The notes: generated from the letters alone by a model not told the origin. A DNA stretch of 57,432 nucleotides from Arenicellales bacterium (GCA_048550195.1 JBLYYR010000051.1:1-57432); one strand, 5' to 3'; positions 4,190-38,705 are shown, numbered from the stretch's first letter. A program made the numbers and translations.

Positions 4190-4216
4190 TTCTGTTTCCT
4201 CATATATTCACAATAT

Positions 4217-10625: not shown

Positions 10626-10769
10626 AGAGCTCTTTAATGTATAAAATACAGGGACGGCGGATTATAGCACTGAAAATGCCTGGCAGTTTAAAGACTTCGT
10701 AGCGAGGCTGCACCTACATATTGAGGGGAAAGATTAAAGACTGAAAACTGCATATCTTTCATTCCTTAA

Positions 10770-20307: not shown

Positions 20308-22119
20308 TTATTTACCTATTGCGTTGATTTCCGCATCTTCATCATCGAATCCAAGCTTGAGGCCCAGTGAGACATGATGGAAACGGCTGCTGCTGAAGTC
20401 ATCATGAATGGCGAAGCCTATGTTGTACCACTGGTCGGTAGCCATACTGATATCACCCGGCTGATCAGATGTCAGCTTGCGGGTCATCAAAACTGTCCAT
20501 GTTCCGTCTTTTAGCTCGCCGCTGAACTGGACACCCTGGCCGCCGGTCATTACACGCTCAGCAAGGATATAGCCATCCTCCGATTCACCGCTGCCGGATT
20601 TGTAACGCAGCAGATCCATGAAGCTACCGTTCTCCAGTAAGGCCTGCAGTTCGGCTTCATCTTTCAGCTTGTCCCAGCCACCGCGCTTTTTACCCTCTTT
20701 GCCTTCAACTTCGATCGCAGTACGGCTTTCTTTCAGGTACTTGGTGTAGCCATGGCTCAGATCAAGACGTTGAGCCAGGGGGCTTGATGTACGAACAGAA
20801 TCATCGGGCTGGTGTGGCATGTAGTTAGCATCGTGATGGCAGGTTTGCCAGCAGCCGGCACGTTCTGCGTATTCCACTTTGGGGTCATCTTCACTGTCTG
20901 TAGCAAGCATAACGGCTAGCTTGATCTGGTTCTCAGTATCCATCTTGCCGCCTTCGACAAACGAAACCGGCACATGTTGCTCACCCTCTTGCCACTGAAA
21001 CCGCATGTACAGGTTATCAGCATCGTGTGCTGCCTGCATGTTGACCGGTATGCTTCCGCGCTTGCCAGCTATCGGTGTAGATTCTGCCTTTTCACCAGAT
21101 ACAATCAGGTCGCCGATATCCACTTCCTCGTCTTCGTGACAATCGAAGCAACGATCACCTGTTACAAAGGCACGTTTGCCTCCGTGGTCACTGCCTTTCA
21201 GAGCCCATTCCATTGAAGCCTGCCCAGGGTAAAACAGCATGACTTCGCGTGGTTCGATGCTCGACCAGTCGATGTTCGCCGCCGGATTTTGCCCTGAAGC
21301 AGCCACTGCAGCAGCAACCGGTGCCGCTGCTTCGCTTATCGCTGCTGGCTCTTCGGTTGGTTTCGCAACCGTTGTTTCTGTTACGGTTTCCGCAACGGGT
21401 TTAGCTGCAGCAGTCTGGTCAACTTTCTTGTCTGCCTTCTTATCTGTACCATTGCCTGCGCTCTTAGCATCGATGAATGCCTGCCACTGCGGTGGGATCG
21501 GGCGCTTGTTATCCGGGTTCGGTACTTCCAGCGCCGTCAGTTCTTCATCAGTCAGCTGGTCGTGTACTTTATTGTGCGCAATCCCCTTGTGGCAATCGAT
21601 GCAGGTATTACCGACCTGCATACCGTTAATGTGCTGTTTGCGCGAACGTTTTTTCTGATTTTCCGGGTTCATCGAACTGAAATCATGGCAGTTACGACAT
21701 TCACGGGAATCTGTTTCTTTCATGGCACGCCAGACGTTCTGTGCCAGCTGAAGGCGCTTCTTATCGAACTTCTCAGGTGTATCAATGGTACCGAGTACCT
21801 TGTGAAACACCTCGTTACTGGCCTGGACTTTGCGCACGACCTTGTGTACCCAGGGGTCCGGCACGTGGCAATCTGAACAGGTGGCGCGTACACCACTGCG
21901 GTTGGTGTAGTGAATGGTTTTTTTGTATTCCTGAAACACATTCTCTTCCATTTCGTGACAGGAGATACAGAAATCAAGCGTATTGGTTGCTTCCATCGCT
22001 GTGTTGAAACCGCCCCAGAAAACAACACCGACAATCATAAAAAACAATGCGGCGCCAAGCGTCGTGCCCAGCAGAACCTTACGTGACATCAAGCCGAATT
22101 TTCGGGATGAATTAGCCAT
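20308..22119 (-). CDS. nirT: NapC/NirT-type tetraheme quinol dehydrogenase fused to a diheme periplasmic domain
   Basis: N-terminal TM helix plus CISCH, CSDCH, CRNCH and CIDCH. An Ala/Pro/Thr/Glu-rich linker spans about residues 215-285. The C-terminal domain of about 320 aa carries CFDCH and CWQTCH. Confidence 0.85.
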   Translation of the reverse strand: MANSSRKFGLMSRKVLLGTTLGAALFFMIVGVVFWGGFNTAMEATNTLDFCISCHEMEENVFQEYKKTIHYTNRSGVRATCSDCHVPDPWVHKVVRKVQASNEVFHKVLGTIDTPEKFDKKRLQLAQNVWRAMKETDSRECRNCHDFSSMNPENQKKRSRKQHINGMQVGNTCIDCHKGIAHNKVHDQLTDEELTALEVPNPDNKRPIPPQWQAFIDAKSAGNGTDKKADKKVDQTAAAKPVAETVTETTVAKPTEEPAAISEAAAPVAAAVAASGQNPAANIDWSSIEPREVMLFYPGQASMEWALKGSDHGGKRAFVTGDRCFDCHEDEEVDIGDLIVSGEKAESTPIAGKRGSIPVNMQAAHDADNLYMRFQWQEGEQHVPVSFVEGGKMDTENQIKLAVMLATDSEDDPKVEYAERAGCWQTCHHDANYMPHQPDDSVRTSSPLAQRLDLSHGYTKYLKESRTAIEVEGKEGKKRGGWDKLKDEAELQALLENGSFMDLLRYKSGSGESEDGYILAERVMTGGQGVQFSGELKDGTWTVLMTRKLTSDQPGDISMATDQWYNIGFAIHDDFSSSRFHHVSLGLKLGFDDEDAEINAIGK

Positions 22120-22266: not shown

Positions 22267-23934
22267 TCAAGTTACGTGGTTAACACGGTTATACACGTTG
22301 AATTTACCTGTTGGAGCGTAAAGACCTTTAACGCGTGCTTTTTCTTCCAGTGTCTTGGCATCGAAAATGATGATTTCACCGTTAGGTTCCAGGCTGTCCG
22401 CACGATTCCAGACTGATGCCCACACTTCAGTACCATCTTTGTTGAACTCGAAATGAACAGCTGCATAGCCTTTCTTCTCGGTCAGACGGATAGTCTTAAC
22501 AACCTTGCGGGTCTTCTTATCGATGACCTTAACAGACTGCTGGATAGCAGGCTCAGGGTGTTTAGTCTGGTCAGCCCAAACGTAATCACTCTTAGGATGG
22601 GTACGCAGGAATACGCCAGCACCGTCGGTATCGACTTCGTAGCAGATTTTCCAGGCCTGGTCTTTATGGCCTTTAGGATCGTTGCCCCATGCGGTTACCT
22701 TACCAACACCTAAGTGCGTAGTACCGCCTACAGGACCACACTCAGGATCGATCCAGTTTGCACCAGGACCTGGGTGAGGTTTCTTGTCTACGTCGATCAT
22801 TGCTTCCAGTTTTTGACTCACTGTATCAATAACTACCATCTTGTTAGATGCGTTAGCTGCGATCTGGAAATATTGACCGGTAGGATCGTAGAAACCGTCA
22901 TGCAGGAACTTGGCAGTGTTGATCTTGGTAGTCTTGAGGTTTTCCAGGTCAGAGTAATCAACCTGCCACATCTGACCTAATTCCTTCGCAGCCACTAACC
23001 ATGTAGGAGCCATCGGCGTGTCATAGATCGCAGCAACACGTGACTCGTTAACATACTCACCATCAACGTTAATACCACGAGTAGAAACTACTTTCAGCGG
23101 TTCCATGGTTTCAGCATCAGCGATAACGAAATGAGGAGGCCAGTAACCGCCACCGATAACATACTTGCCATCACCGGATACGGCAACGTCACGTGCATCA
23201 TAAGCAACCTGCACCTGGGCCACTTTCATGTTGTCTGGATTAGCCCAGAGGTCGATCTTGGTCATCATGCCATCACGACCCATGATGTACCAGAAACGGC
23301 CAGGATCCTTGGCTTTCAAGGTATCATGATGCTCGACTGTCTTCAGTACATGTACCGCATAACCGGTAGGAATACGCGCAAACACTTCTTTTTTGTCACC
23401 GTCAATAACCGCGATTGTACCTTTATCACGTTCGATGGCGATGAAGAAGTTTTGCCAGTTACGGTCATGCATTGGCTTGGTTGGATAGGCTGCAGGCTCC
23501 ACAAAAACCTTGTGACGTTCTTTCATGAGAGCCAGAGACATTTCAGGGGGAACCGGTGGATCCATCTGGATATAACGAGCCAGCAGGTCGATCTCTTTAT
23601 CATTAAAGATATCATCGAAGTTATTCATGCCGCCTTCGGTACCTATCTTAATAATTTTTGCCAGACGTTTTGTGCCTAACTTAAGAGTACCTTTGGTTTT
23701 CTTGGCTTTATTAGGCTGCGGTTCCAGGTTTTTACCTGTTGCACCTTTACGTAATACGCCATGACAACCGGCACAACGCTGGAAATACATGCTTTTCGCC
23801 TGTTCGAATTCAGCATCATTAAGTGGTACGAATGCCTCCTTCTTGGCGGCTAAAGCAACTCCCGAAGACGCTGCCACCCCTACACATGCAGCGAATAAGA
23901 CTGCTCCGTATTTTGTTGTATGTTTTATACTCAT
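22267..23934 (-). CDS. nirS: Cytochrome cd1 nitrite reductase NirS
   Basis: ATG at 23934 is preceded by AGGAG. It has a signal peptide, a CAGCHG heme c domain and a d1 propeller. It is the first gene of the nir cluster and has a perfect FNR box upstream. Confidence 0.9.
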   Translation of the reverse strand: MSIKHTTKYGAVLFAACVGVAASSGVALAAKKEAFVPLNDAEFEQAKSMYFQRCAGCHGVLRKGATGKNLEPQPNKAKKTKGTLKLGTKRLAKIIKIGTEGGMNNFDDIFNDKEIDLLARYIQMDPPVPPEMSLALMKERHKVFVEPAAYPTKPMHDRNWQNFFIAIERDKGTIAVIDGDKKEVFARIPTGYAVHVLKTVEHHDTLKAKDPGRFWYIMGRDGMMTKIDLWANPDNMKVAQVQVAYDARDVAVSGDGKYVIGGGYWPPHFVIADAETMEPLKVVSTRGINVDGEYVNESRVAAIYDTPMAPTWLVAAKELGQMWQVDYSDLENLKTTKINTAKFLHDGFYDPTGQYFQIAANASNKMVVIDTVSQKLEAMIDVDKKPHPGPGANWIDPECGPVGGTTHLGVGKVTAWGNDPKGHKDQAWKICYEVDTDGAGVFLRTHPKSDYVWADQTKHPEPAIQQSVKVIDKKTRKVVKTIRLTEKKGYAAVHFEFNKDGTEVWASVWNRADSLEPNGEIIIFDAKTLEEKARVKGLYAPTGKFNVYNRVNHVT

Positions 23935-24043
23935 CAATAATACTCCTACTTGGTTTACCAAAAGTTTTTATCACAAACATTGCTAGAATCATTGTTATAA
24001 CCCGATACAGGCGTAACAATATTCTCTATTGATTTCAGGGTCA

Positions 24044-24057
24044 TTGATTTATATCAA
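24044..24057. promoter_or_regulatory. Perfect FNR/DNR/NNR box TTGAT-TTAT-ATCAA
   Basis: Exact match to TTGAT-N4-ATCAA. It is centred about 117 nt upstream of the nirS ATG at 23934. Confidence 0.7.
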
Positions 24058-25308: not shown

Positions 25309-25779
25309 TCACAGGCTCCATATCCGTCTACCCTGTTTCATTTGCACAGCGTTCAGGCGTTCAATAATTTCTTCACGTCGCATGAGTATTGACTGGTTTG
25401 CCATGTTTAGAAAAATTATTTCCTCGTGATCATTGTGTTGTTTAATAGCCTTTTTCAAGGGCACCAGCGAATCTAGAAAGTGATCAAAATCATTTTTCTT
25501 AATAATAGATGAAAGGTCATGAACCAGGCGCACGATATAGTCATGTTCTTCGCTCAGATGAATAATGGCGCCGACCGAATCACTGTTCTCCTCAATAAAT
25601 AAAGGATAGAGTACTTCGTCTTCCATTTGCATGTGAAGCTTAAGTTCAGATACGAAGTTCTGAAACAGGTGTTTTGCTTTTTTCCATTCTCCCACATCAG
25701 CCGCTATTTCGCATTTGTTGAGTGCGGCATCGTATTTATCGTGGTCATGTACCAGCCAGTTGTTAGATGTGCTTTTCAC
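25309..25779 (-). CDS. Hemerythrin HHE cation-binding domain protein (DnrN/NorA/ScdA-like)
   Basis: 156 aa with a GTG start. His/Glu-rich helical repeats (HMQMEDEVLYP, LSEEHDYI, HNDHEE) are typical of di-iron HHE proteins. Confidence 0.7.
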   Translation of the reverse strand: MKSTSNNWLVHDHDKYDAALNKCEIAADVGEWKKAKHLFQNFVSELKLHMQMEDEVLYPLFIEENSDSVGAIIHLSEEHDYIVRLVHDLSSIIKKNDFDHFLDSLVPLKKAIKQHNDHEEIIFLNMANQSILMRREEIIERLNAVQMKQGRRIWSL

Positions 25780-26847: not shown

Positions 26848-27288
26848 GTGACCCTCAACGAAATCATCCCCTATCTCCCTCATTTCCAGGCAATACTTAA
26901 TACTTTATCTGCTATTTTGCTGGGAACGGGTTATTACTTTATTCGATCTCAAAATCGTAGCGCGCATCGTCTGTGCATGATGTCGGCATTTTTAATCTCG
27001 ACAGTATTCCTGATTTCATACCTGACCTATCATGCCAAGGTCGGATACATGCCGTTTACGGGTCAGGGGAGTATCAGGCCGTTTTATTTCACCATGCTTG
27101 CTTCCCACGTTATCCTTGCCGCGGTCATGGTGCCGATGGTCCTGGCAACGGTTACCTATGCACTTTTGGGCAATTTCAACAAACATCCACGCATTGCACG
27201 CTGGACATTACCCGTGTGGCTTTATGTGTCAGTGACCGGTGTACTGATTTACATACTTGGTTTTCACATTTACAAACCTGAACTATAA
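26848..27288 (+). CDS. DUF420 (CtaM-like) membrane protein associated with heme-copper oxidases
   Basis: GTG start, 146 aa, four TM helices. Characteristic HRLCMMSAF...YLTYH...SHVILAA...HPRIARWTLPVWLYVSVTGV pattern. Confidence 0.8.
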   Translation: MTLNEIIPYLPHFQAILNTLSAILLGTGYYFIRSQNRSAHRLCMMSAFLISTVFLISYLTYHAKVGYMPFTGQGSIRPFYFTMLASHVILAAVMVPMVLATVTYALLGNFNKHPRIARWTLPVWLYVSVTGVLIYILGFHIYKPEL

Positions 27289-27311
27289 AATAGTCAATAA
27301 AGGGTCGACTT

Positions 27312-27539
27312 ATGGCATACCTCTACTTCACAATTACAGCTGTTTTTCTCTACCTGTTTTCGGACTGGCTACTCAACAAAATAGAAGCCTACTATGGCAA
27401 ACGGCTTGAGTATCGATCAGTTATTTTTTTTGTGATTATTATGGTGCTGGCTGTTGGCTCATTTGAAATTATCGATCGAATAGTCGGCGAGCCCCAACAA
27501 GCTTCACCAACACCGCAAACTAGTCCAGCCAAAAAATAA
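27312..27539 (+). CDS. Small two-helix membrane protein, unknown function
   Basis: 75 aa hydrophobic ORF with a Pro/Gln/Ser/Thr-rich tail. Confidence 0.4.
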   Translation: MAYLYFTITAVFLYLFSDWLLNKIEAYYGKRLEYRSVIFFVIIMVLAVGSFEIIDRIVGEPQQASPTPQTSPAKK

Positions 27540-27681
27540 ATTTGCAGGAAGAGGAACCGCAGAGAGTACTGCAGGATTTTTGTACACTAAGACGATAATT
27601 TCTGTGTGACGTGCATGGGATAAACTAAAACCGCAATCGCAGGACGAACAAGAGTAGCCCTTTGCGGTAAGTATTTAGTAC

Positions 27682-28194
27682 TTATTGAACAGAAAATCCT
27701 TTCAGTTGATCAAACTCAACCAGCAGGATTTGGGCAGGCTTAATGTCTACATCCTTCTCTATTGAATGATTGAACCCCTGTTCACGAACACTGTCATCCA
27801 TTTTTATCTGCAAATGATGTTTACCGACAGGGATTCTACTGCTGTAGTAAATATTTATACTGCCGTCTTTAAATATACCCGGCGGCTGCATTGATTCGTT
27901 GAAGATTACTTTACCGTCCAGTAAAGCTTCAATAATAACTGGCGACCTTTCACGGGGACAATCATCAGGCTTGCGCATGTTTGGAGGCAACTTCATTAAT
28001 TCTTCCTGGCTGATCTTGCGACATGGCTCACGCAAATCACCGGCATGTGCGAAGGCAATAGTAACAATCGCCTCGTCATCTTCGATAATCCGAATTGCTG
28101 GCTGAAAGGAAAAATACCATACCAATGCCATAAAAATGGTGTAATTTATAGCCTGCAATAGATACCGAAGCGCTTTGTTATTCACCCCCTGCAT
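27682..28194 (-). CDS. Membrane-anchored protein of unknown function, coupled to the cytochrome b fusion
   Basis: 170 aa with one N-terminal TM helix. Its ATG overlaps the TGA of the upstream gene (TGATG). Confidence 0.6.
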   Translation of the reverse strand: MQGVNNKALRYLLQAINYTIFMALVWYFSFQPAIRIIEDDEAIVTIAFAHAGDLREPCRKISQEELMKLPPNMRKPDDCPRERSPVIIEALLDGKVIFNESMQPPGIFKDGSINIYYSSRIPVGKHHLQIKMDDSVREQGFNHSIEKDVDIKPAQILLVEFDQLKGFSVQ

Positions 28195-29777
28195 CAGCCA
28201 TTTCCTCCACCAGCATCCTCGGTCACACCGCTGTCGGCTGTATCTTCGAGCTGTTTCAATTTCACCAGCTCAGCGCGAAAATCATTCAAATCATTTTCGA
28301 TTTCATTCTTGTCGGTTTCTGCGCCACCGTGTACACGGATACGACTACGATCAGCACGGCCTCGAAGTATCGGTTTACGTTTACCTTCAAAACGCAGTTT
28401 GGTCCAGCGGTTGCCAAATCGGTAGAAACAGTCATTATGCCGGCAGCCGGCTACCATGATACCATCGGCACCGTTTTTTAAAGCATATTCAACCAGTGTT
28501 GGCGGCAGCATACCGCTACAGAGCAGGCGAACGCCTTTTGTATCATCACTGTCCAGGCGGTTAACATTTAATCCGTGGCCACAGCCATAAATCAGTACTT
28601 TTGTTTCGCCCTGCAAAGCAGCTATTGCCTCATTGGTTTGTGAGCGCATTTTATCAACCGAAAGCTGCGGCATATCTATTCCGGTTTTCAGTTCTTCTTT
28701 TCGTGAGCGGAAGGGATTAGATGAAGGACAGGAACCTGCACAAATCCCGCATGCGGCACACAATGCTGGGTCGACAACCACTTCCTTGTCAAATTTTGCA
28801 CCATCAGTTCGTGCCTGTACCGAGATTGCATCAAAAGGGCAATCATCAAAACACAACTCACAACCATTACAATGATCAAGGTCAACCACCGCTTTTGGGC
28901 CCTCCTTCTTCGGTGGCAGCCACGGTAATAATATTAAAAACCACGTTATGCTTATTGTCAGAATCCAGACCTGGCCTTCCGTCCAGTAGTCAAGCAACGG
29001 GTAAACATTAAGATAAAACCAGTCAAGATTTATCACCTGCGGCATGCTGCTCAGGTCGGCAGGAGCATGACTAACAGCCGGCTTTGCAAAGGACAACGCC
29101 AGTAAAGCCAATAAGGTACCGATAGCGAGACCACGCGGAGGATTTATCTCAACATTGGATAAACGTTTTACGTGCAGCCATAACATAAATGCCAGTAACA
29201 ACGGCTGACCCAGAAGATGTAAAAATTCGATCAAAATAAAAAAACGGTCAGTCATTTCACCGGCGACAAAATTGCGTGTCATGGTGCTGGGAAATAACGG
29301 TAATGCATCCAGCAATCGGGCTGAACCAACCGCAACATATTGCGCCATTTCATCCCACACCAGCCAGTAACCGGTTATGCCTAGAGTAATAATAACCCAC
29401 AGGTTTGGCACACCGGTCACCCAGGAGAACCAGCGGAAGCCACGATAACGACCAGAGGCAAACTCTTTGAACATGTGTAACAAAACCGTAATGATGACGG
29501 CGTCAGATGCATAGCGGTGCAGACTGCGCATAACGCCAGCGGCATACCACTGATCATGCGTAATGTATTCTACTGAGGCGTGGGCACCATCCAGACTACC
29601 GTGAAAGGGAATGAACAGATAGACTCCCGTCACCAGAATCACCCAGAACAGGAAAAAAGATAAGGTGCCCAGATGATACAAAGGATTCCACTGGGTACCA
29701 AATGAAAGGTTAAACCAGGACTCCAGAGCCAGATAGACTCGCTTGACAGGGTTAACTAACACTGAGAAATGTTCCAA
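28194..29777 (-). CDS. Fusion protein: diheme cytochrome b (bc1/b6 type) + 2x[4Fe-4S] ferredoxin + MvhD/FlpD-like domain
   Basis: About six TM helices, with SLH-x13-H (helix B) and FLH-x14-H (helix D). Next come CNGCELCFDDCP and CAACGICAGSCP. The final domain reads IYGCGHG...LLCSGMLPP...GADGIMVAGCRHNDCFYRFGN. The start is TTG at 29777 or GTG at 29762. Confidence 0.8.
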   Translation of the reverse strand: MEHFSVLVNPVKRVYLALESWFNLSFGTQWNPLYHLGTLSFFLFWVILVTGVYLFIPFHGSLDGAHASVEYITHDQWYAAGVMRSLHRYASDAVIITVLLHMFKEFASGRYRGFRWFSWVTGVPNLWVIITLGITGYWLVWDEMAQYVAVGSARLLDALPLFPSTMTRNFVAGEMTDRFFILIEFLHLLGQPLLLAFMLWLHVKRLSNVEINPPRGLAIGTLLALLALSFAKPAVSHAPADLSSMPQVINLDWFYLNVYPLLDYWTEGQVWILTISITWFLILLPWLPPKKEGPKAVVDLDHCNGCELCFDDCPFDAISVQARTDGAKFDKEVVVDPALCAACGICAGSCPSSNPFRSRKEELKTGIDMPQLSVDKMRSQTNEAIAALQGETKVLIYGCGHGLNVNRLDSDDTKGVRLLCSGMLPPTLVEYALKNGADGIMVAGCRHNDCFYRFGNRWTKLRFEGKRKPILRGRADRSRIRVHGGAETDKNEIENDLNDFRAELVKLKQLEDTADSGVTEDAGGGNG

Positions 29778-29867
29778 AATTAGACGGGACCAAAATTATA
29801 TCACCGTTTCCTAATAAACGTGTTGATCCATATCAAACCGGTATGACCCTGATGATCGTACTGAACA

Positions 29868-30710
29868 TTACCCTTCAGATGATTTTTTACCCTTGCGCCA
29901 TTCACGGCCTATAAAAGTCACAATAAAGAAAATGACGGTAATGCCAACAAAGATTTCTACAAAAAACGAATAGTCAAAATAATATCCATCACTACGTGGG
30001 TCATAGGTAGTGCAAAACAGTTTAATTTTATCGCTCAACCCTGAAAAAAATGACTGCTCAGGTTTGGGTCTCCCCAGCACCAGTTCAAGTAGCGGGTCAA
30101 CCAGTAGTGGTGTATCAAAAACCTGTCCATAAACCTGCCGGTAGACTTTGCCATCAGCATCAATAACCGTTGCCTGAATTAAGTGGTCAAAACCACTTGC
30201 TGTCGGATAATAAAGAAAGCCCAGGTCTTCTGATAAAGCGCCTAAATCTTCTTCAGCAACACTCAACAGATTCCATTTTTTATTACTGATGCCCTGTTTA
30301 TTAGCAAAATATTGCATCGCATCAGGTGTATCAACGCTGGTATCAAAACCAATAACTGCAACAGAGAAACTATCTTCGCCCAATGCATCGCGTGCCTTCT
30401 CCACCACTTTAGACAGGTGCCGGGTGGTCATCGGGCATATCTGATAACAACTGGTGTAAACCATGCTCAATACCAGCGGTTTGCCACGAAAGTCATCCAG
30501 TGTTACCGGCTTGCCTTCAGCATTGATAAAGGCATGGTTAGCTAGCTGTTGGCCAATTGCTGACTGACTGGTTTTTAGTGCCGTATCGTAATCGAATTCC
30601 TGTTTGACCTCTTTATTAATTGGTACTTCCGCAGAAAGAAAATCTACCCCAGCAACACGGAATGGGATTATAAGCAGCAAAAGACAGCTTAATATAATGG
30701 TATATCGCAT
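29868..30710 (-). CDS. SCO1/SenC-family copper chaperone with C-terminal TM extension
   Basis: Signal peptide, thioredoxin-like CYQICP (CXXXC) motif, and a C-terminal hydrophobic helix. Confidence 0.85.
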   Translation of the reverse strand: MRYTIILSCLLLLIIPFRVAGVDFLSAEVPINKEVKQEFDYDTALKTSQSAIGQQLANHAFINAEGKPVTLDDFRGKPLVLSMVYTSCYQICPMTTRHLSKVVEKARDALGEDSFSVAVIGFDTSVDTPDAMQYFANKQGISNKKWNLLSVAEEDLGALSEDLGFLYYPTASGFDHLIQATVIDADGKVYRQVYGQVFDTPLLVDPLLELVLGRPKPEQSFFSGLSDKIKLFCTTYDPRSDGYYFDYSFFVEIFVGITVIFFIVTFIGREWRKGKKSSEG

Positions 30711-30739
30711 AATAAATCTATTGTGGGTCTAACTGGCAG

Positions 30740-31603
30740 TTAAGCGAGAAAATAGACGTCAAGAAGAGCGCCAACGAGAAGCAGCACCAACTGTACCAGT
30801 GAGGCAAAAAAGCTCTTCATTGCAACCTCTGGCGAAGGATCGAGGATCATTTTATAATTTTGATAAATAAAATACCCCCCCCCGATGACAGCGCCTGTAA
30901 GATAAATCCAGTTCAAACCATAATAATATGGCAGTATAGAAATACCAACCAGGATCAGAGTATTGCCCATCACCACAATCGCAGTCGACTTGTCCCCGAT
31001 CACAACCGGTAACATGGGTATGCCGGCTTTGGCATAATCCTGATGCTTGGCAATGGCCAGACTCCAGAAATGTGAAGGTGTCCAGAAAAACAGGACGAGT
31101 GCCAACAAAACAGGCACCGGGCTCAAAACCGGATCTACAGCAGCGGCACCTGCAAGCACAGCAAAACTGCCTGATGCACCGCCAATAACTATATTCATCC
31201 AGGTGCGGCGCTTCAGCCATACCGTGTAGATGATGGCATAAAAGAAAGCACCTAAAAAGATATAAGATGCAGCCGCAGTGCTTAAAAATATAGCTGCGGA
31301 ACCCACACCTGCGCCCAATAGCGACAATATAAACAATATCCACAACGGACTTTTATGGAAGCGACCGGTTACAAACGGTCGGTCTTTTGTGCGTTGCATC
31401 ACACTGTCGAGGTCAACCTCAAAGTACTGGTTAAACGCACCCGCGCTACCTGCAGAGATAAGTACAGCAAACGCCAGCACCAGAATCTGCATACTATCAA
31501 GCGCCGGTCCCGGCGTGACGACCATGGCAACCAGTGCTGTGAGCATCATGATAACGCCAATACGCAGTTTTAAGAGATTTGATATTTGTTTGAACATATC
31601 CAT
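30740..31603 (-). CDS. ctaB: Protoheme IX farnesyltransferase (heme O synthase)
   Basis: 287 aa polytopic UbiA-family protein with typical CyoE/CtaB regions (NQYFEVDLDSVMQRTKDRP). Confidence 0.9.
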   Translation of the reverse strand: MDMFKQISNLLKLRIGVIMMLTALVAMVVTPGPALDSMQILVLAFAVLISAGSAGAFNQYFEVDLDSVMQRTKDRPFVTGRFHKSPLWILFILSLLGAGVGSAAIFLSTAAASYIFLGAFFYAIIYTVWLKRRTWMNIVIGGASGSFAVLAGAAAVDPVLSPVPVLLALVLFFWTPSHFWSLAIAKHQDYAKAGIPMLPVVIGDKSTAIVVMGNTLILVGISILPYYYGLNWIYLTGAVIGGGYFIYQNYKMILDPSPEVAMKSFFASLVQLVLLLVGALLDVYFLA

Positions 31604-31708
31604 TAACGGCTTCTCATAATACAGTAATGCGAACGGCTTACGCCGTCTTTAGGAAGTTTAAATCCTGTCGGTAGTTTCAGCCGCAAATTACCAGCATTAT
31701 TTACTGGC

Positions 31709-31750
31709 GAAAAAAAACGCGGGACAAGCTTCGCTCATCCCACGTTTTTC
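31709..31750 (-). terminator. Hairpin terminator between oxidase subunit I and ctaB
   Basis: AACGCGGGA (31716-31724) pairs with TCCCACGTT (31738-31746). T/A runs lie on both sides. Confidence 0.55.
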
Positions 31751-31765
31751 AACAAGCTTACAATA

Positions 31766-33496
31766 CTAACTAAGCGGCCAGACAGATGCCAGATAGTCCC
31801 AGTTGATAAAGTAGTAAACAACAAAACACACCAGTAGCGCCATCGCAAGAACAAATGTTCCCGGGGCTTCAAAACCAGCAGAACCGTGTTGCTCTACCAC
31901 TGGTGGAGCCATTGGTAAACGCTCAGGTTGATCAATGGTATAGGCATTTGCCGCCAATGGCACACCAAAGCTCTGCAGGAAACCAGCCTCTGGAGCCAGC
32001 TTCTTACCGAATAGTAAAGTACCTACAGTAACGATCAGATACATCGCACCACCGACAACACCCAGTACACCACCGATAGCACCCACCGCCATCATCAGGT
32101 AGGCCGTGCCTGGATATTCAAAGCTTAATGCAGCGCCGGTAAAATCCATGTCCCAGTGACGGCGTGATACACCAAGAGTACCTGCACCCAGCATGAACAG
32201 AATCATCATCGTCATGCCGCCACCGAATACATAAGGCTGCATTTTAGCCACCCAGGGCAGAATCATTGCACGTCTGAATAACAGTGGAAGTAAAAGGTAG
32301 GTCAAAGCCATAAATGTCAGCGTAGTACCTGTCACTACGGTAGCGTGGAAATGAGCCGGTACATAAATGGTGTTATGAATGATCAGGTTAATCTGCTCAG
32401 TACCCATAACTACGCCGGTTATACCGCCAATGAAACCAAAGGTAACCAGCGATATGAAGAAACCAGAGAAGACCGGATTGCCCCATGGTGCTTTGCGTAA
32501 CCACTCAAACAGACCCTTGGTATAACCTTTGCCTCGTTGCGCAACTTCCATCGCACCCGGAACAGTCAGACCGTGGATCATACTGGCCAATACGGCAAGA
32601 TACATCGCATAACTGGTGTTAAATACTTTCCACTCAGAGCTTATGCCTGGATCAACCAGAATGTGGTGAGCACTGGCTAACTGCAGGAAGAAGATATAAA
32701 GCAGGAACGCACTGCGGCTGACTTTCTCTGACATCGGACGGGCACCGAATAAAACGCCGGTGATCAGATACCAGACAGAAACGTGAGCGGCGACGTTAAT
32801 CTGCTGAGAAGAGTGACCCATACCCCACCAGATAACACGGTACATTTCTGCATCAATATGATTGATATAACCGATAGACCAGAGGAAAGTCGGTACCAGA
32901 ATGATTGCACCACTGGCAATGGTGAAAACAGCAATAATGGCCGCTGTCAGCGCACCAAAGGTTACCAGCGGAATAGAGCCATCATAGGTTTTATCCTCTT
33001 TGGCGATAACCAATGTGCCAAGAAAGACGAAACAGCCGATTAATGCACCCACGGCAAACAGGATTAAGCCCAGATAGAAGTGGGGCTCTGCCTGCATCGG
33101 TACATAGGAGGTCATCATTACGCTTGAATTGCCCTGCATCACTGCGACGTTGTTCATCACTGCACCGACAAGCATCAGCACAAACCCTGTCCAGGCCCAC
33201 CGTGGCGCAGCCAGTCGCGTACGCAACAGCGTCGACGAGGCAAAATACAGGATCGCAATTTCAAAGAAAATAATCCAGAAGATCAGCGCATTAATACCAT
33301 GCGAAGTCAGTACCTGGTAGAACATATCTGCTGGCAGCAAATGTACTTCCTGCCAGCGAGTCAAAACGACACCCAGTGCCATTATTCCGGCAACCAGCAG
33401 TGCTACAGCACCCGCCACGGCATTCGCCTTCATCAGGCTTTCAGCAGACTTGTCAAAAAAGAAACCCGTATCCGGGCAAACCCTGAATTTTGCCAT
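31766..33496 (-). CDS. Heme-copper oxidoreductase subunit I, B-family (ba3)-like, lacking the cross-link Tyr
   Basis: 576 aa. Motifs are TSHGINALIFW, WWGMGHSSQQINV, LASAHHILVDPG, GLFEWLRKAPWGNPVF and YVPAHFHATV. By eye these align closely with Thermus ba3 subunit I as I recall it. Confidence 0.9.
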   Translation of the reverse strand: MAKFRVCPDTGFFFDKSAESLMKANAVAGAVALLVAGIMALGVVLTRWQEVHLLPADMFYQVLTSHGINALIFWIIFFEIAILYFASSTLLRTRLAAPRWAWTGFVLMLVGAVMNNVAVMQGNSSVMMTSYVPMQAEPHFYLGLILFAVGALIGCFVFLGTLVIAKEDKTYDGSIPLVTFGALTAAIIAVFTIASGAIILVPTFLWSIGYINHIDAEMYRVIWWGMGHSSQQINVAAHVSVWYLITGVLFGARPMSEKVSRSAFLLYIFFLQLASAHHILVDPGISSEWKVFNTSYAMYLAVLASMIHGLTVPGAMEVAQRGKGYTKGLFEWLRKAPWGNPVFSGFFISLVTFGFIGGITGVVMGTEQINLIIHNTIYVPAHFHATVVTGTTLTFMALTYLLLPLLFRRAMILPWVAKMQPYVFGGGMTMMILFMLGAGTLGVSRRHWDMDFTGAALSFEYPGTAYLMMAVGAIGGVLGVVGGAMYLIVTVGTLLFGKKLAPEAGFLQSFGVPLAANAYTIDQPERLPMAPPVVEQHGSAGFEAPGTFVLAMALLVCFVVYYFINWDYLASVWPLS

Positions 33497-33497
33497 T

Positions 33498-34037
33498 TTA
33501 ATTCTCCGTCACAATGATTTTGCCAAGCATGGTATGGTGGCCGATGCCGCAATATTCGTTACAAACAACAGCAAAATCACCTGCCTGATCAGGGGTCATG
33601 GTGACAACCATTTCATAGCCAGGAATAATTTGCAGGTTAATATTTACAGGCTGTAAAGAAAAACCATGGTTCCAGTCCATCGATGAAAGATGCACACGAT
33701 AGGACTGATCCTTTTCCAGTTCGAAAATTGGATACCACTGCCATAACCTGCCCAGCATATAAATATCGCTGCCAGCCGGTGGACGTACAATAGGAATGCC
33801 GGCTTCCTCACCGACCTTGTATTTCTCGACCATTTCATCGACCCTGGCCTGAAATTTTGCCGGTGTCGTCTGATAGGCTTCGTTAGAAAGGTTTTGTTTA
33901 CCGTAGATATGCCAGTAAGGCATCATGAAAAACATGATTAAACACCACACCAGTGCAATGCCTATCCACACAATCTCCTCTTTACCAACCGGGACATTCC
34001 ACCAGATCCGCTCTGAAGGGGGTAAAAATGAAGTCAT
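33498..34037 (-). CDS. Heme-copper oxidoreductase subunit II with complete CuA site
   Basis: ATG at 34037 is preceded by AAGGAG. It has one TM helix and a cupredoxin domain with DWNHGF and CNEYCGIGHHTM. The stop lies 1 nt from the subunit I ATG. Confidence 0.85.
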   Translation of the reverse strand: MTSFLPPSERIWWNVPVGKEEIVWIGIALVWCLIMFFMMPYWHIYGKQNLSNEAYQTTPAKFQARVDEMVEKYKVGEEAGIPIVRPPAGSDIYMLGRLWQWYPIFELEKDQSYRVHLSSMDWNHGFSLQPVNINLQIIPGYEMVVTMTPDQAGDFAVVCNEYCGIGHHTMLGKIIVTEN

Positions 34038-34048
34038 TGATATTCTCC

Positions 34049-34207
34049 TTAAGGTGCGACAGGTATAGTGGCGATTTCCATGACTCCCCACAATATATAG
34101 AAAACTGTGGGCATGGCGATACCGATGAACAGTAACAGGAATGGGTTATCGAGCATCCTCTGAAAAAATGGGATTTTCTCTGGTTTAGGGATATCTTCCT
34201 CGGACAT
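34049..34207 (-). CDS. Unlisted 52-aa single-TM ORF (possible subunit IIa-like small subunit)
   Basis: MSEEDIPKPEKIPFFQRMLDNPFLLLFIGIAMPTVFYILWGVMEIATIPVAP. It ends 11 nt before the subunit II ATG. It is too short for the ORF track, and the listed 34091 start of subunit II runs through it in another frame. Confidence 0.5.
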   Translation of the reverse strand: MSEEDIPKPEKIPFFQRMLDNPFLLLFIGIAMPTVFYILWGVMEIATIPVAP

Positions 34208-34378
34208 AAGTTAAGTCTCCTGGTTTTTTTATGTTTTAGTGGCCACTAACTGTAGTATTTCTACAATAACCTCTCCCGCAGCCTATGAAATAGGCCTATA
34301 CAGACCAAATGACGCCCTTTACTGCGTCAAATGGCTCATTCAGTTGTTCAGATTACTACACACAGAGTGTGATATTAC

Positions 34379-34392
34379 TTGATCTATGTCAA
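34379..34392. promoter_or_regulatory. FNR/DNR-type box TTGAT-CTAT-GTCAA
   Basis: 9 of 10 match to TTGAT-N4-ATCAA, in the divergent region between the oxidase operon and the hemerythrin gene. A weaker TCAAT-CTAC-ATCAA lies at 34399-34412, 20 bp away. Confidence 0.5.
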
Positions 34393-34668
34393 ATGTCCTC
34401 AATCTACATCAAAAATAACGTCAAAACTCTAACACGAATATTGTCAATATCCACTAACTACCGAATAAATAACGGCTACTTGACCTGCATCATAGATAGC
34501 GACACGCAATAATTATATCCTGCAAAGCCACTGACCAGTACAAATACTGCTTGAAGGGGATATAACGATATCCTGCAAGATATAATCAGCAGTATCATTT
34601 AAGACGATTACAATATAATACAAAACGGATCGTGTAGAGCGGTCTTAATCTTACACAGGAACCTGTTG

Positions 34669-35145
34669 ATGGCATTAATTGAATGGCGAGAAGAGTTTTG
34701 CACCGGTGTACCGGGCGTCGATTTCGAACACCAGGAGCTCATAAACGAGATCAATTCGATCTTTGCATTGATTGATGACAGGGCAGATAAGGACGATGTG
34801 CTAGATAGCCTGGGTGATATTTATGGAAGTATATCGGCTCATTTTGCACTGGAAGAGCAGATGATGGAAAAGCACAATTATGATCATTTCAAGGAACATC
34901 AGGCTGATCACGAACGCCTGCTTGATGAAATTCGTGACATTACCATTGAATTTGAAAATGCTACTGAACTGGACGCGGAGAAATTCACCCAAAAACTGAA
35001 CGACTGGTTCCAGCTACATTTTGGGACACATGATTCACGTTTACACGGTCTGGCACACTTGATAAATCATCAAACGGTTAGCGAATCAACACTGAAAACG
35101 ATGATACGTAACGCAAAAAATGCTTTCTTGACCAAGACAGGGTGA
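34669..35145 (+). CDS. Bacteriohemerythrin
   Basis: IEWREEFCTGVPGVDFEHQELI, HFALEE, HQADH and WFQLHFGTHD motifs. ATG at 34669 (the listed start at 34666 is TTG). Confidence 0.8.
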   Translation: MALIEWREEFCTGVPGVDFEHQELINEINSIFALIDDRADKDDVLDSLGDIYGSISAHFALEEQMMEKHNYDHFKEHQADHERLLDEIRDITIEFENATELDAEKFTQKLNDWFQLHFGTHDSRLHGLAHLINHQTVSESTLKTMIRNAKNAFLTKTG

Positions 35146-35206
35146 GGTTCTCTGGCTAAACAGACTTATCACGACTATTAAAACTATTTGAACGAGCATT
35201 TACCCA

Positions 35207-35719
35207 ATGAGAAACCCTTTACTAAAAATTTTGTTTACCGGCTTATTAACTGTACTGACCGTATTCCCTGGGATTTCCCATGCACTGCAGGCAACAGATA
35301 ACACGAGCATCTTTAATGGTTATTATGCTCGCGCAGGCAACAATGGCAGCCCGTCAAGAACACTCCATCATAATGTCTATATGAAACTGTATGCAGACGA
35401 AGGTCAGCAATGGGTTGCATTGCTGCATATTCCGCTGCCTTATGGCTCCACTGTTGATGAGGCCGTTATCCCAGAAATTTTCAAAAAAATCCGTAAACAG
35501 CTAAATTCCAGTTCTTTCGTCAGGGACACCTTTGGCTATTTAGATGAAAAAGCAACCGTACAGTTTGAACGGTTTGGTTACATTCAGGATAAAATCATTT
35601 TCGAATGCGGCTCGCTGGCTCCCTGCACGATCAGACCGGCTGATGGTTATCTGGAGCTAATAAAACCAGGAATGATCAATGAGCATATCATCAAGTACGA
35701 TCACGTGGTTACGCAGTAA
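35207..35719 (+). CDS. Secreted protein of unknown function
   Basis: 170 aa with a signal peptide ending ISHA-LQ. I recognise no family. Confidence 0.55.
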   Translation: MRNPLLKILFTGLLTVLTVFPGISHALQATDNTSIFNGYYARAGNNGSPSRTLHHNVYMKLYADEGQQWVALLHIPLPYGSTVDEAVIPEIFKKIRKQLNSSSFVRDTFGYLDEKATVQFERFGYIQDKIIFECGSLAPCTIRPADGYLELIKPGMINEHIIKYDHVVTQ

Positions 35720-35756
35720 GCATCAGAGCAACACTTTATAAGAAACAGGACAAATC

Positions 35757-36398
35757 ATGACCAGCAAAAAAATACCTATTGGCACAATTGTTATATTTGG
35801 ATTTTTTTTGATTACCATGGTTGCTGCTTATTTTCTGACGAAACCATCACCGCCACCAGCAGAACTGGCGGGCGTACTTCGTCCGGACTTTAAACTACTT
35901 CAACCATTCGAACTGACAGACCACAACAATACAGTGTTCAACGAGAAAAACCTTCTGGATAAATGGAGTTTTGTGTTTTTTGGTTTCACTTCCTGCCCCC
36001 ATATCTGCCCTACAACATTGAATGTTCTGAATTCGGTTCATGGTTTACTGGTAGAGGAAACAGGTGAAATCCCTGATGACATGCAGGTGGTCTTTATCTC
36101 GGTAGACCCAGATCGTGATAGCATCGAAAAAATCGCGGGTTATATTACGAAATTCAATAAAGACTTTATCGGTACAGGAGCAGACAAGGCAAAAATCGAC
36201 AAAGTAGCCCGACAATTTGGTTCTGGTTATGTCAAAGACCCGGAAACCTCTGCTGGCGAATACAACGTCTCACACACCAGTGCAATATTTCTGGTAGACC
36301 CTTATGGTCGACTGGTAGCTACTTTTTCACAGCCACACCAGCCGTCTACCATCGCCTCGCAGTATAATAAAATACGAAAGTATTTTTCCTGGGACTAA
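35757..36398 (+). CDS. SCO1/SenC-family copper chaperone (second paralog)
   Basis: N-terminal TM anchor, FGFTSCPHICP (CXXXC), and a downstream conserved His (SHTSAIFLVD). Confidence 0.85.
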   Translation: MTSKKIPIGTIVIFGFFLITMVAAYFLTKPSPPPAELAGVLRPDFKLLQPFELTDHNNTVFNEKNLLDKWSFVFFGFTSCPHICPTTLNVLNSVHGLLVEETGEIPDDMQVVFISVDPDRDSIEKIAGYITKFNKDFIGTGADKAKIDKVARQFGSGYVKDPETSAGEYNVSHTSAIFLVDPYGRLVATFSQPHQPSTIASQYNKIRKYFSWD

Positions 36399-36614
36399 CT
36401 AAACGGTATCGTTACGCCCTTTCCGCTTATCTGCCTTTTTCCACGCCCTGAAAGCCCAGATAAAATACGCAGATATCATTACGATGTTGATGACGCCGCC
36501 TATCAGATAAAAATTATTGGTGAGATCTTTTTCCTCAGCAGCTGGAACAGATACAGGCTGCTCTGTGTAAAGATTAACGGTGTTCTTGGCGGGAGATAGT
36601 TCTGTTGTATTCAT
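36399..36614 (-). CDS. Small single-TM protein
   Basis: 71 aa with one hydrophobic helix and a basic C-terminus. It is divergent from the 458-aa HCO-like gene. Confidence 0.4.
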   Translation of the reverse strand: MNTTELSPAKNTVNLYTEQPVSVPAAEEKDLTNNFYLIGGVINIVMISAYFIWAFRAWKKADKRKGRNDTV

Positions 36615-36695
36615 AAGAATTATTCAACCACTCTATTTCGTGGTCATGTGGTTAATATATTTCACGAACTCTATCCTGTGTTTAATCATAAAACA

Positions 36696-36709
36696 ATGAT
36701 ATAGGTCAA
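36696..36709. promoter_or_regulatory. Weaker FNR-like box ATGAT-ATAG-GTCAA
   Basis: 8 of 10 match to TTGAT-N4-ATCAA, about 137 nt upstream of the ATG at 36846. Confidence 0.35.
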
Positions 36710-36845
36710 ACAACGGTATTGGGTCGTTGTCTTTAAGGTATCAGCAGATGCATTGAAGCTTGAATGCCATTACAATATCGTCAACATTTGTGACTCTGCC
36801 ACCTTAAGCAAGCCCTACTAACAAAATAGTTTTAGTAAACCCACC

Positions 36846-38222
36846 ATGCTGCCCAACCAATTCTCCCTGCTAACGCAACAGTTCACGTTACCTGCACCCG
36901 ATAACGATGCCCGGCGGATGACGGCCGGCTGGTTATTCCTTGGTCTGGCGGCACTGGTCATCGGTGGTCTGTTTACCATCCTGATTGTTCTCTCCCGTAC
37001 CCCTTTCTTTCAGGACATCATCCCCTGGGTAGATTTTTTCCGTACCGCCCTGGTGGTCCATGTTGACCTGACTGTACTGGTCTGGTTCCTGGCATTCTCT
37101 GGTGTTTTATGGAGCTACAATAGTACGAATAAATGCCTGCAGTGTGGATGGGTCGCTTTACTGATGGCCAGTGCAGGAACCCTGATCATAACAATCTCCC
37201 CTTTTACCGGTGAAAGCCACCCGTTAATGAGCAATTATGTGCCGGTATTACAGAGCACAGTATTTTTTACCGGCCTCGGTTTATTTGGGCTCGGCTACGG
37301 CCTGCTGGTACTGCGCATGCTTATGACTACATTGGCAGCACGAAACAATAACGGAGGCGAAGTCTTACGCTTTGGTCTGTTTGTCGCTGTTGTCGCCTCC
37401 TTATTCGCCTTAGCTGCGCTCATGTTGTCTTATCTTGGTATCAACGACGACTTCAAAGGCGAGGCTTATTACGACCGACTGTTCTGGGGCAGTGGCCATA
37501 TACTGCAATTTAGCCATACCCAGTTGATGCTGGTTGCCTGGTTATGGCTAGCTACGGTCAGTGGTGCCTTCCTCAGACTAACACCCCGTGTAGTGCTTAT
37601 ATTATTTGTCATGGGTTTGTTGCCGGTATTAATGGTACCCATCATTTATGTATCATTTGATGTCAGCTCCGGTGACCATATGTTCTGGTTTATTCAGCTA
37701 ATGAAGTACGGCGGTGCAATTGCAGCTGTTCCCATTGGCCTGGCAACCACGCTCGCCATCGTAGAAAGATGGCGACCTGTCCCTGGCTTTGAAATTGAGC
37801 GCAGCGCACTGATTTTTTCAATTCTGCTATTTGGCGTGGGTGGTATTATCGGCTTCATGATCAGTGGCAGCGACGTAAGGGTCACCGCCCATTATCATGG
37901 CTCTATCGTTGGTGTAACACTTGCCTTCATGGGTATGGCCTATCACCTTCTTCCACAGCTGGGCTTCAGAAAAGTCAGCGGACGTGCAGCACGATGGCAA
38001 CCTGGAATCTACGGCATTGGCCAGCTGCTGCACATCATTGGCCTGGCATGGTCGGGCGGGTATGGCGTGCAACGTAAAACGGCCGGTGCAGAACAGGGCC
38101 TGGAAAAGTTTGAACAGATTGCTGGAATGGGTTTAATGGGGCTGGGAGGATTAATCTCAATTATTGGTGGTATTATTTTTCTGGTTGTTGTCTATCAGGC
38201 AATAAAACCGGATAAGAAATGA
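36846..38222 (+). CDS. Heme-copper oxidase subunit-I-like membrane protein with an altered active-site ligand set
   Basis: 458 aa, about 12 TM helices. Motifs are ALVVHVDLTVLVWF, LFWGSGHILQF, SSGDHMFWF (Asp-His where His-His is expected) and VTAHYHGSIVG. No subunit II gene is adjacent. Confidence 0.75.
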   Translation: MLPNQFSLLTQQFTLPAPDNDARRMTAGWLFLGLAALVIGGLFTILIVLSRTPFFQDIIPWVDFFRTALVVHVDLTVLVWFLAFSGVLWSYNSTNKCLQCGWVALLMASAGTLIITISPFTGESHPLMSNYVPVLQSTVFFTGLGLFGLGYGLLVLRMLMTTLAARNNNGGEVLRFGLFVAVVASLFALAALMLSYLGINDDFKGEAYYDRLFWGSGHILQFSHTQLMLVAWLWLATVSGAFLRLTPRVVLILFVMGLLPVLMVPIIYVSFDVSSGDHMFWFIQLMKYGGAIAAVPIGLATTLAIVERWRPVPGFEIERSALIFSILLFGVGGIIGFMISGSDVRVTAHYHGSIVGVTLAFMGMAYHLLPQLGFRKVSGRAARWQPGIYGIGQLLHIIGLAWSGGYGVQRKTAGAEQGLEKFEQIAGMGLMGLGGLISIIGGIIFLVVVYQAIKPDKK

Positions 38223-38297
38223 TAAGCGGGGGCCAGATACCAGTTGCTTCTACTATCAGGAACAATATAGGCCTGACCCGGGGTGACCGAATACTGG

Positions 38298-38705
38298 TCA
38301 AGGTCCAACATGTATCAGCAAGCGTCGTCGATGCCCTCTTCTGCGGTGTTCCCACAAGTAAAGTCCTTGCCAGCAGCCCAGTCCCAACCTGCCGCTGATG
38401 ATGGGAATGCCCAGTGATGTGCTGGTGAGGATGGCTTTGATATGGGCAGGCATGTCATCCGGCCCTTCGGTAGTATGTGTATACAGGCCATCATTTTCCG
38501 GTACCAGTCGGTTCAGCCAGTTTTCCAGATCTCGCCGCGCTGACGGGTCAGCATTTTCCTGGATGATCAGGCTGGCCGAGGTATGGCTGACAAAAACAGT
38601 ACAAAGCCCATGCTCGAATCCAGAAATCGTGACAAAGTCTCTAATCTGACTGGTAATATCGAGCAGGCCCTGTCCCGGCGTTTCAATTATTAGTTCCTCG
38701 ACCAT
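38298..38705 (-). CDS. YjbQ/UPF0047 family protein
   Basis: 135 aa with HTSASLIIQENADP, DDMPAHIKA and GLGCWQGLYLWEHR motifs. Confidence 0.8.
   Translation of the reverse strand: MVEELIIETPGQGLLDITSQIRDFVTISGFEHGLCTVFVSHTSASLIIQENADPSARRDLENWLNRLVPENDGLYTHTTEGPDDMPAHIKAILTSTSLGIPIISGRLGLGCWQGLYLWEHRRRGHRRRLLIHVGP

Follow-up and report, generated by a model that had tools for sequence, protein, structure and literature searches.

Heme-copper oxidoreductases can be sorted by the residue at the position of the cross-linked tyrosine, which is Tyr in O2 reductases, Glu in cNOR and qNOR, Asn in sNOR, and Gln in eNOR (PMC8756737, section 2.7.1 and Table A4, following Hemp & Gennis 2008). The eNOR family was proposed in 2008 (Hemp & Gennis), and its biochemistry was reported in 2024 for the R. 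marinus enzyme (Rmar_0161; Murali et al., PMC11214002). Its ingroup sequences are defined by the Gln (PMC8756737); its members are relatives of the B family and are partnered by a CuA subunit (PMC11214002). The purified R. marinus enzyme reduced nitric oxide (NO) at 0.68 per second at 25 °C, yielded N2O as the product, and did not reduce O2 with any donor tried (PMC11214002). The same study states that a K-channel-like pathway is retained in eNOR and that the enzyme may conserve energy. Here, we describe an operon at positions 31766-34207 of a 57,432-nucleotide stretch of DNA (the window) from an Arenicellales bacterium (GCA_048550195.1, JBLYYR010000051.1:1-57432), a gammaproteobacterium of the sulfur cycle that is uncultured. 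The operon was read from this 57-kb part of the genome. An earlier inspection of the sequence (the original prediction) had proposed a non-canonical, B-family-related NO reductase on the basis of a Tyr-to-Gln substitution and had left its family unnamed. We assign a probability of about 85% to the reading that the operon encodes an eNOR-type NO reductase, composed of a small membrane subunit, a CuA subunit II, and a heme-copper subunit I.

Subunit I, the predicted eNOR catalytic subunit (576 residues; 31766..33496, minus strand), matched Pfam COX1 (PF00115) with an E value of 9e-61. The segments VLTSHGINALIFW, VIWWGMGHSSQQINV, QLASAHHILVDPG, and IYVPAHFHATV were all located in its translation, and the heme and metal ligands (H66, H228, H277, H278, H382, and H384) align with those of ba3 oxidase, confirming the six canonical histidines noted previously. 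When subunit I was searched by phmmer against all Protein Data Bank (PDB) sequences, only B-family oxidases were matched, the best being Aquifex ba3 (E = 7.5e-42) and Thermus ba3 (E ∼1e-38). The alignment with ba3 oxidase that the original prediction had suggested as a check was run with HMMER, and it placed GHSSQQ of subunit I over GHPIVY of Thermus thermophilus ba3, gap-free through helix VI, with H228 equivalent to ba3 H233 and Q232 equivalent to ba3 Y237. The Tyr position reads Gln, as had been claimed; the His-Tyr cofactor motif of the B-family O2 reductases (H-x3-Y in helix VI) is absent, and Gln232 stands there instead.

Relatives were taken from a one-genome-per-species collection that contains at least 565 related stretches, of which 80 loci (68-94% identity) were fetched. 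These loci belong to uncultured gammaproteobacteria (Thiotrichales, Sulfuriflexus, Thiohalophilus, Thiogranum, Sedimenticola, and Arenicellales), Burkholderiales, Rhodocyclaceae, Magnetococcales, and one Bacteroidota metagenome-assembled genome (MAG). The cultured relatives Curvibacter sp. PAE-UM and Piscinibacter caeni have homologues with 69% identity. Across this identity range, all 81 sequences had Gln at the cross-link position, and their six His ligands were invariant save for three sequences that are incomplete at H66. Because the Gln, the His ligands, and the CuA ligands of subunit II are all invariant among the relatives, the Gln at the Tyr position is, on the evidence of these alignments, neither chance nor decay. 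We use the name eNOR because publications diagnose the family by this combination: Gln at the Tyr position, kinship to the B family, and a CuA partner. Other assignments of subunit I were considered and rejected. An sNOR/bNOR would be expected to carry Asn at the Tyr position, and a cNOR, qNOR, or nNOR would be expected to carry Glu as a fourth FeB ligand, where Gln was found; cNOR would also have a cytochrome c partner, and the partner here is a CuA cupredoxin. For gNOR, a His-to-Asp replacement is expected, and all three metal-binding His residues are present.

The phylogenetic analysis gave the same placement. Among representatives of 50%-identity clusters, the Gln-bearing set includes a haloarchaeal protein with 41% identity, and the next relatives after this set are archaeal GHxxQY proteins (35-43% identity) in which the Tyr is kept. 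The Gln-bearing sequences were monophyletic in 200 of 200 bootstraps of a neighbor-joining tree, and the clade remained monophyletic (197/200) after Thermus and Thermomicrobium sequences were added. A tblastn search of annotated plasmids revealed 44% identical homologues on megaplasmids of T. thermophilus and Thermomicrobium roseum. The window subunit I shares 45% identity (E = 2e-94) with WP_015717644.1 from T. scotoductus, a protein given by accession as an eNOR ingroup sequence (PMC8756737), and the T. thermophilus megaplasmid protein is 84% identical to the latter. The phylogeny that had been called for thus puts subunit I in the Gln clade, outside the Tyr-bearing oxidases. Taken with the diagnostic residue and the R. 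marinus precedent, this placement supports the non-canonical, B-family-related NO reductase of the original prediction and supplies its missing family name, eNOR; the novelty that had been implied for the enzyme type does not hold, given the 2008 proposal and the 2024 characterization. The window enzyme is a well-conserved member of an already described family, and its enzyme type is known and biochemically validated. Three more distant B-family relatives (P0182, P0194, and P0212; 32-33% identity, one from a Dehalococcoidia MAG) keep the helix-VI Tyr and possess Tyr in place of His at two ligand positions (ba3 H282 and H384); judging by these substitutions, the group may be another unusual heme-copper lineage.

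Subunit II (33498..34037, minus strand) consists of one transmembrane helix and a cupredoxin domain in which the CuA site is complete. It matched Pfam COX2, and its best PDB match was the ba3 CuA domain (E = 3e-14), with the ligands aligned residue for residue (DWNHGF with DVIHGF and CNEYCGIGHHTM with CNQYCGLGHQNM), in agreement with the complete site reported earlier. The ligands H124, C159, C163, H167, and M170 were invariant in 69/69 subunit II sequences. This gene was listed as 33498..34091, starting from a GTG; the ATG at 34037 has AAGGAG 7 nucleotides (nt) upstream and is most likely the true start rather than the GTG at 34091, and subunit II therefore does not overlap the small open reading frame (ORF) that precedes it. 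The operon is tightly packed on the minus strand, with the ATG of subunit I located one base past the subunit II stop codon.

The first gene of the operon (34049..34207, minus strand) encodes the small single-helix membrane subunit of 52 residues, which was recognized by its ribosome-binding site, its synteny, and a sequence profile. This ORF has a strong AGGAG Shine-Dalgarno sequence, and in 74 of the 80 related loci it immediately precedes the subunit II gene. A profile built from 64 copies matched, with an E value of 1.2e-7, an annotated 41-residue ORF that precedes subunit II of the Thermus eNOR-type enzyme (no other ORF there scored better than E = 2.5), and the small subunit is also encoded in the Thermomicrobium roseum and Defluviimonas operons. 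Its consensus is LLDNPFLLLF..G..P.VFY.lWG.MEI..iP. and, by these profile and synteny matches, it is a third subunit conserved in the eNOR operons of different phyla. The ORF had been likened to ba3 subunit IIa. It is a real gene that occupies the same operon position, and the likeness does not extend to sequence, as a PDB search with the small ORF provided no match to ba3 subunit IIa.

NirS, the cytochrome cd1 nitrite reductase and candidate NO source (22267..23961, minus strand; PF02239, E = 1.7e-116), is encoded together with the heme d1 genes ∼8 kb from the eNOR operon. The order within the window is nirS, a NirT/NapC fusion, and a cupredoxin, then nirN, E, C, F, D, L, G, H, and J, so that the full nirS/heme d1 cluster described earlier at 8 kb was recovered. 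The fusion gene (20308..22119, minus strand), directly downstream of nirS, joins a NapC/NirT tetraheme quinol dehydrogenase to an EB_dh (ethylbenzene-dehydrogenase-like) heme domain, and the cupredoxin gene that follows is at 19865..20200. Most window ORFs of at least 100 residues were scanned against Pfam, and none of those scanned encoded norCB, norZ, or nosZ, which upholds the corresponding statement of the original prediction over that set.

An FNR/DNR/ANR-type box, TTGACATAGATCAA (34379..34392, minus strand), has its first base 185 nt upstream of the ATG of the operon's first gene. A palindromic FNR-type box, TTGATCCATATCAA (29823..29836), precedes the gene for a cytochrome b fusion protein, and another is found upstream of nirS (24044..24057). 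These three sites account for all occurrences of TTGAYN4ATCAA in the window, compared to 0.43 expected. TTGAYN4RTCAA was detected in the 400 nt that precede the small ORF in 60 of 71 related loci versus 59 of 3014 background windows (2%); the box that had been noticed before the operon is thus both confirmed and conserved across genera. This pattern supports co-regulation of the eNOR operon with nirS by a putative FNR/DNR-family factor. No gene for such a regulator was seen in the window. A sigma-70 promoter scan of 27000..38500 yielded sites that were not enriched over shuffles, and 19 terminator-like sites were counted in this interval versus 11.3 ± 3.5 in shuffles, a modest excess with no informative site. 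The nir/eNOR region also contains three hemerythrin-domain genes (16712..17296, plus strand; 25309..25779, minus strand; 34666..35145, plus strand), one of them divergent beside the eNOR operon, and another hemerythrin gene follows the Defluviimonas cluster. These proteins may have a role in O2/NO sensing or buffering.

The points that weigh against the eNOR assignment concern its connection to the characterized enzyme, a tyrosine that could come from another helix, a second heme-copper protein in the window, and the heme pathway. The connection to the R. marinus enzyme is made by way of the family's definition and of further members named in the literature rather than by a direct sequence comparison: Rmar_0161 did not occur among the members named for ten examined clusters of 50% identity or in the top 120 matches of a search that started from the Thermus eNOR. 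The activity and cofactors of the window enzyme and its close relatives are predictions.

As to the tyrosine, the C-family solution does not apply, as judged by sequence: no Tyr stands six residues ahead of the first helix-VII His. Five residues before this His is a Gln in the window clade (Q272, encoded at ∼32681..32683) and an Asn in distant eNORs, including those of Thermus and the haloarchaeon, compared to Val, Ile, or Thr in the Tyr-bearing relatives. Another residue of the Gln clade is itself a tyrosine, Y296 in helix VIII (∼32609..32611), which is present in 83/83 sequences of the Gln-clade alignment and, by pairwise comparison, in Thermus, and is absent from the Tyr-bearing relatives; Y299, also in helix VIII, is clade-specific as well. 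Y296 is nine residues from S305, and helical phase weakly suggests that Y296 and Y299 point ∼120-180° away from the face formed by S305, H308, and T311. The amide at the Q272 position and Y296 are possible second-shell signatures of eNOR. An AlphaFold2 model of subunit I, computed from a 24-sequence alignment of close homologues, had a predicted local distance difference test score (pLDDT) of 40.5 and was unusable. The suggestion that no Tyr is supplied from another helix comes from sequence, together with the family models made by the authors of PMC11214002, in which no migrated Tyr is seen for eNOR.

These residues bear on the possibility that the enzyme is a specialized B-family O2 reductase for low oxygen that operates without the canonical His-Tyr cofactor and obtains its fourth electron from, e.g., Tyr296. 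Such an enzyme would account for the restriction of Y296 to the Gln clade, and it would be in keeping with the ba3 oxidases as the closest PDB entries, with the sister groups that keep GHxxQY and its Tyr at 35-43% identity, with FNR-type regulation, which also suits high-affinity oxidases, and with ctaB, SCO, and DUF420 (CtaM-like) genes of the oxidase-assembly type. We nevertheless consider it very unlikely in view of the invariance of the Gln, the inactivity of the R. marinus enzyme toward O2 and the lack of a migrated Tyr in the family models (PMC11214002), the proximity of the operon to nirS with an FNR-type box common to both, and the helical phase that would put Y296 roughly opposite the K-channel face.

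The K-channel-like residues of subunit I are S256, Y243, S305, H308, and T311; mapped by alignment, the ba3 K-channel positions S261, Y248, S309, and T315 are kept as Ser, Tyr, Ser, and Thr, ba3 T312 corresponds to an invariant His, and ba3 Y244 is Val or Ile in the window protein and its relatives. In subunit II, Glu21 is situated at the helix start within an ExxW motif, at the position of ba3 II-E15, and was Glu in 67/67 sequences. A conserved, putative K-channel-like path of this kind fits the account in PMC11214002 of an eNOR that has such a path and may be energy-conserving.

The second heme-copper protein is a divergent subunit-I homologue of 458 residues (36846..38222, plus strand; COX1, E = 7.6e-15), which is encoded divergently upstream of the eNOR operon at a distance of 2.6 kb and which the earlier gene inventory had omitted. 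It reads GHILQF, with Phe at the Tyr position, and has Asp-His for His-His in helix VII; across 56 aligned relatives, the residue that replaces the first helix-VII His is Glu in 22, Asp in 18, Gly in 7, and others in 9. This homologue was present in 59 of the 61 eNOR loci with enough flanking sequence, and in 40 it directly follows a gene for a 170-residue protein. It gave no PDB match at E ≤ 1 and no match in the plasmid collection, and no protein that demonstrably has a cupredoxin fold was identified as its partner. In gNOR, an active-site His is replaced by Asp, and the cupredoxin-fold partner is devoid of CuA (PMC11214002); by comparison with this published description only, the second homologue resembles gNOR.

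A second Tyr-less heme-copper protein could share or take the NO reductase role. Of the earlier phrase "the NO reductase of this pathway," the enzyme type is supported, and the sole or main role is not secure, with this homologue 2.6 kb away and with 57 kb of the genome in view. The window protein might then be a genuine eNOR that is not the main respiratory NO reductase, the bulk of the NO going to the gNOR-like protein or to norCB/norZ elsewhere and the eNOR serving detoxification or a particular O2/NO/sulfide regime. Its co-occurrence with the Tyr-less homologue and the altered metal site of the latter are consistent with such a division of labor; moreover, several NOR families per organism are common and gNOR is typical of sulfidic habitats (PMC11214002), the relatives are sulfur oxidizers, and the window represents 57 kb of the genome. 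We regard this arrangement as unlikely: the metal-site residue of the second protein is variable, which is odd for a catalytic ligand, this protein has no recognizable partner subunit in the window, and the conserved nirS-type FNR box belongs to the eNOR operon and not to the second gene.

With regard to the heme pathway, ctaA is absent from the whole window, though the R. marinus eNOR uses heme A-type (As) cofactors. A ctaA-like gene is located beside the eNOR operon in 15 of 80 related loci and is truncated in the closest relative. In close relatives, a COX15/CtaA-type gene lies between the hemerythrin gene and a gene for an unknown 170-residue protein (∼7227..8300 in L003 and ∼6870..7928 in L006); the truncated version (∼3671..4297) belongs to the 94% identical L001. 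In the window, only 62 nt separate the flanking genes at 34666..35145 (plus strand) and 35207..35719 (plus strand). This comparison suggests a recent loss of ctaA at the hemerythrin-adjacent site.

The genes that follow subunit I on the minus strand are also conserved. Heme O synthase (CtaB/CyoE; 30740..31603; TIGR01473, 257 bits, above cutoff) occupies the same position in 69/80 loci. An SCO1/SenC-like thiol-disulfide/copper chaperone with a CxxxC motif (29868..30710; PF02630, E = 2e-13; 75/80 loci) is presumed to act in CuA maturation. The cytochrome b fusion of 527 residues (28194..29777; 70/80 loci) combines, according to its domain matches, a bc-type cytochrome b (the N-terminal domain and two further helices), a 2×[4Fe-4S] ferredoxin, and an MvhD/FlpD-like domain. 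It exhibits a PEWY-like LDWFYL motif and six predicted helices, and the MvhD/FlpD-like part is predicted to be cytoplasmic. The Defluviimonas plasmid cluster includes the fusion as well; no gene for a Rieske protein was detected in the eNOR cluster. The last gene (27682..28194; 64/80 loci) encodes a 170-residue protein with an N-terminal membrane helix and a beta-rich domain, for which there was no Pfam match; its AlphaFold2 model (pLDDT 53.6) retrieved only generic beta-sandwich structures from the PDB with Foldseek (E > 0.005). This protein was considered as a partner of the second heme-copper protein and rejected, as it stays with the eNOR operon in two loci (L017 and L067) and in the Defluviimonas plasmid (L082) that lack the second protein. 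A DUF420 (CtaM-like oxidase assembly) gene (26848..27288, plus strand) flanks the operon, as do two different SCO1/SenC-family genes, the one at 29868..30710 (minus strand) and another at 35757..36398 (plus strand). The DUF420 and SCO genes suggest a dedicated machinery for copper and heme insertion.

We tentatively propose that the proteobacterial eNOR might not be a free-standing three-subunit enzyme and might instead be part of a conserved, undescribed respiratory module of eight genes, in the order small subunit, CuA subunit II, eNOR subunit I, CtaB, SCO, cytochrome b fusion, 170-residue protein, and second heme-copper paralogue, the metal site of which is degenerate. The cytochrome b fusion could possibly serve as a dedicated quinol-oxidizing electron input. 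It might even split electrons between the very high-potential NO/N2O couple and a low-potential cytoplasmic acceptor, given the predicted cytoplasmic location of its Fe-S domains.

In the most likely reading, the window eNOR is an electrogenic NO reductase that receives its electrons through CuA, with its activity, metal identity, heme type, proton path, and regulation all predicted from sequence. A periplasmic carrier, for which the cytochrome c and cupredoxin of the window are candidates, would give electrons to CuA, from where they would pass to a bis-His low-spin heme (H66/H384) and on to a binuclear center made of a high-spin heme (H382) and a metal on H228, H277, and H278, with Gln232 replacing the cross-linked Tyr. 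The proposed reaction is 2 NO + 2 e- + 2 H+ → N2O + H2O. Its protons would probably come from the cytoplasm by the K-channel-like path that leads from subunit II Glu21 to T311, Y243, H308, and S305; cytoplasmic proton uptake would make the reaction electrogenic. CtaB would provide the farnesylated heme and the SCO protein would mature CuA, and an FNR/DNR-family regulator would turn on the eNOR operon and nirS at low O2, in the presence of NO, or both. A different substrate (N2O, nitrite, peroxide, or NO dismutation instead of NO reduction to N2O) was also weighed. In its favor, roles as NO dismutase or N2O reductase have been suggested for other Tyr-less proteins of the superfamily (PMC11214002), and no nosZ was among the scanned window ORFs. 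We judge such a substrate extremely improbable, as the families in question are kin to qNOR and cNOR and not to the B family (PMC11214002), the sole characterized eNOR makes N2O from NO (PMC11214002), and the window protein sits firmly within the eNOR clade.

Public annotation describes the window protein and its relatives as "cytochrome c oxidase subunit I" or even "cbb3-type," and hundreds are misannotated; organisms that possess nirS and lack norB would therefore be scored as lacking an NO reductase. Recognition of eNOR would close the nitrite-to-N2O step in widespread uncultured sulfur-oxidizing Gammaproteobacteria of marine and sediment habitats, and it flags eNOR-bearing Gammaproteobacteria as potential N2O sources because no nosZ was found in the window. 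The predicted electrogenic character of eNOR would change the energy yield expected from denitrification. With the enzyme type already described, the remaining interest lies in the misannotated public homologues and in the conserved supercluster, whose cytochrome b/Fe-S fusion and second oxidase paralogue offer a lead on how eNOR may be wired into the electron transport chain.

Among the known systems closest to the window enzyme is the eNOR family with its R. marinus member, with which it shares a B-family-related subunit I bearing Gln, a CuA subunit II, K-channel-like residues, heme-biosynthesis genes in or beside the operon, and the association with nir genes. It differs from the family in that ctaA is not in the window, and its proteobacterial subclade has extra conserved genes (the cytochrome b/Fe-S fusion, the 170-residue protein, and the second heme-copper homologue) that are not described for eNOR in PMC8756737 or PMC11214002. 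The "cytochrome a1-like" hemoprotein of Magnetospirillum magnetotacticum, an aerobic denitrifier, is an isolated member of the family (PMC11214002) and is likened here by description. The T. thermophilus ba3 oxidase (PDB 1EHK and 1XME) has in common ∼13 transmembrane helices, the six His, a one-helix CuA subunit II, a small single-helix subunit encoded first (cbaD, subunit IIa), and the retained K-channel residues S261, Y248, S309, and T315. In contrast, its Y237 is Gln in the window protein, which hence lacks the His-Tyr cofactor, T312 and Y244 are replaced by His and by Val or Ile, respectively, the identity is ∼29%, and the small subunit has no detectable similarity to IIa. The sNOR/bNOR, cNOR/qNOR/nNOR, and gNOR families are likewise Tyr-less members of the same superfamily that reduce NO or putatively do so; they differ in having Asn (sNOR/bNOR) or Glu (cNOR/qNOR/nNOR) at the Tyr position or a metal His changed to Asp (gNOR), whereas Gln and all three His are present in the window subunit I (PMC8756737, Table A4; PMC11214002).

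The Thermus eNOR-type enzyme (TTHNAR1 megaplasmid; WP_015717644.1) is comparable in gene order as well as in sequence. Identity is 44-46% over the aligned length with a shared GHxxQQ[IV]N motif, the gene order (small ORF, subunit II, subunit I) is the same, the small subunits are homologous, and nirS is adjacent. In T. thermophilus TTHNAR1 plasmid 4 (L081), the subunit I gene (8983..10668) encodes GHGAQQVN in helix VI and HFK in helix X, and its neighbors are nirS, a multicopper oxidase gene (probably nirK), and a gene for an Rrf2-type regulator. The Thermus protein thus has Lys for the second helix-X His, which would give a His/Lys low-spin heme of the type noted for some eNORs (PMC11214002), whereas the window protein is predicted to be bis-His. 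Downstream, the Thermus locus lacks the ctaB, SCO, and cytochrome b genes of the window operon and has the Rrf2-type regulator instead.

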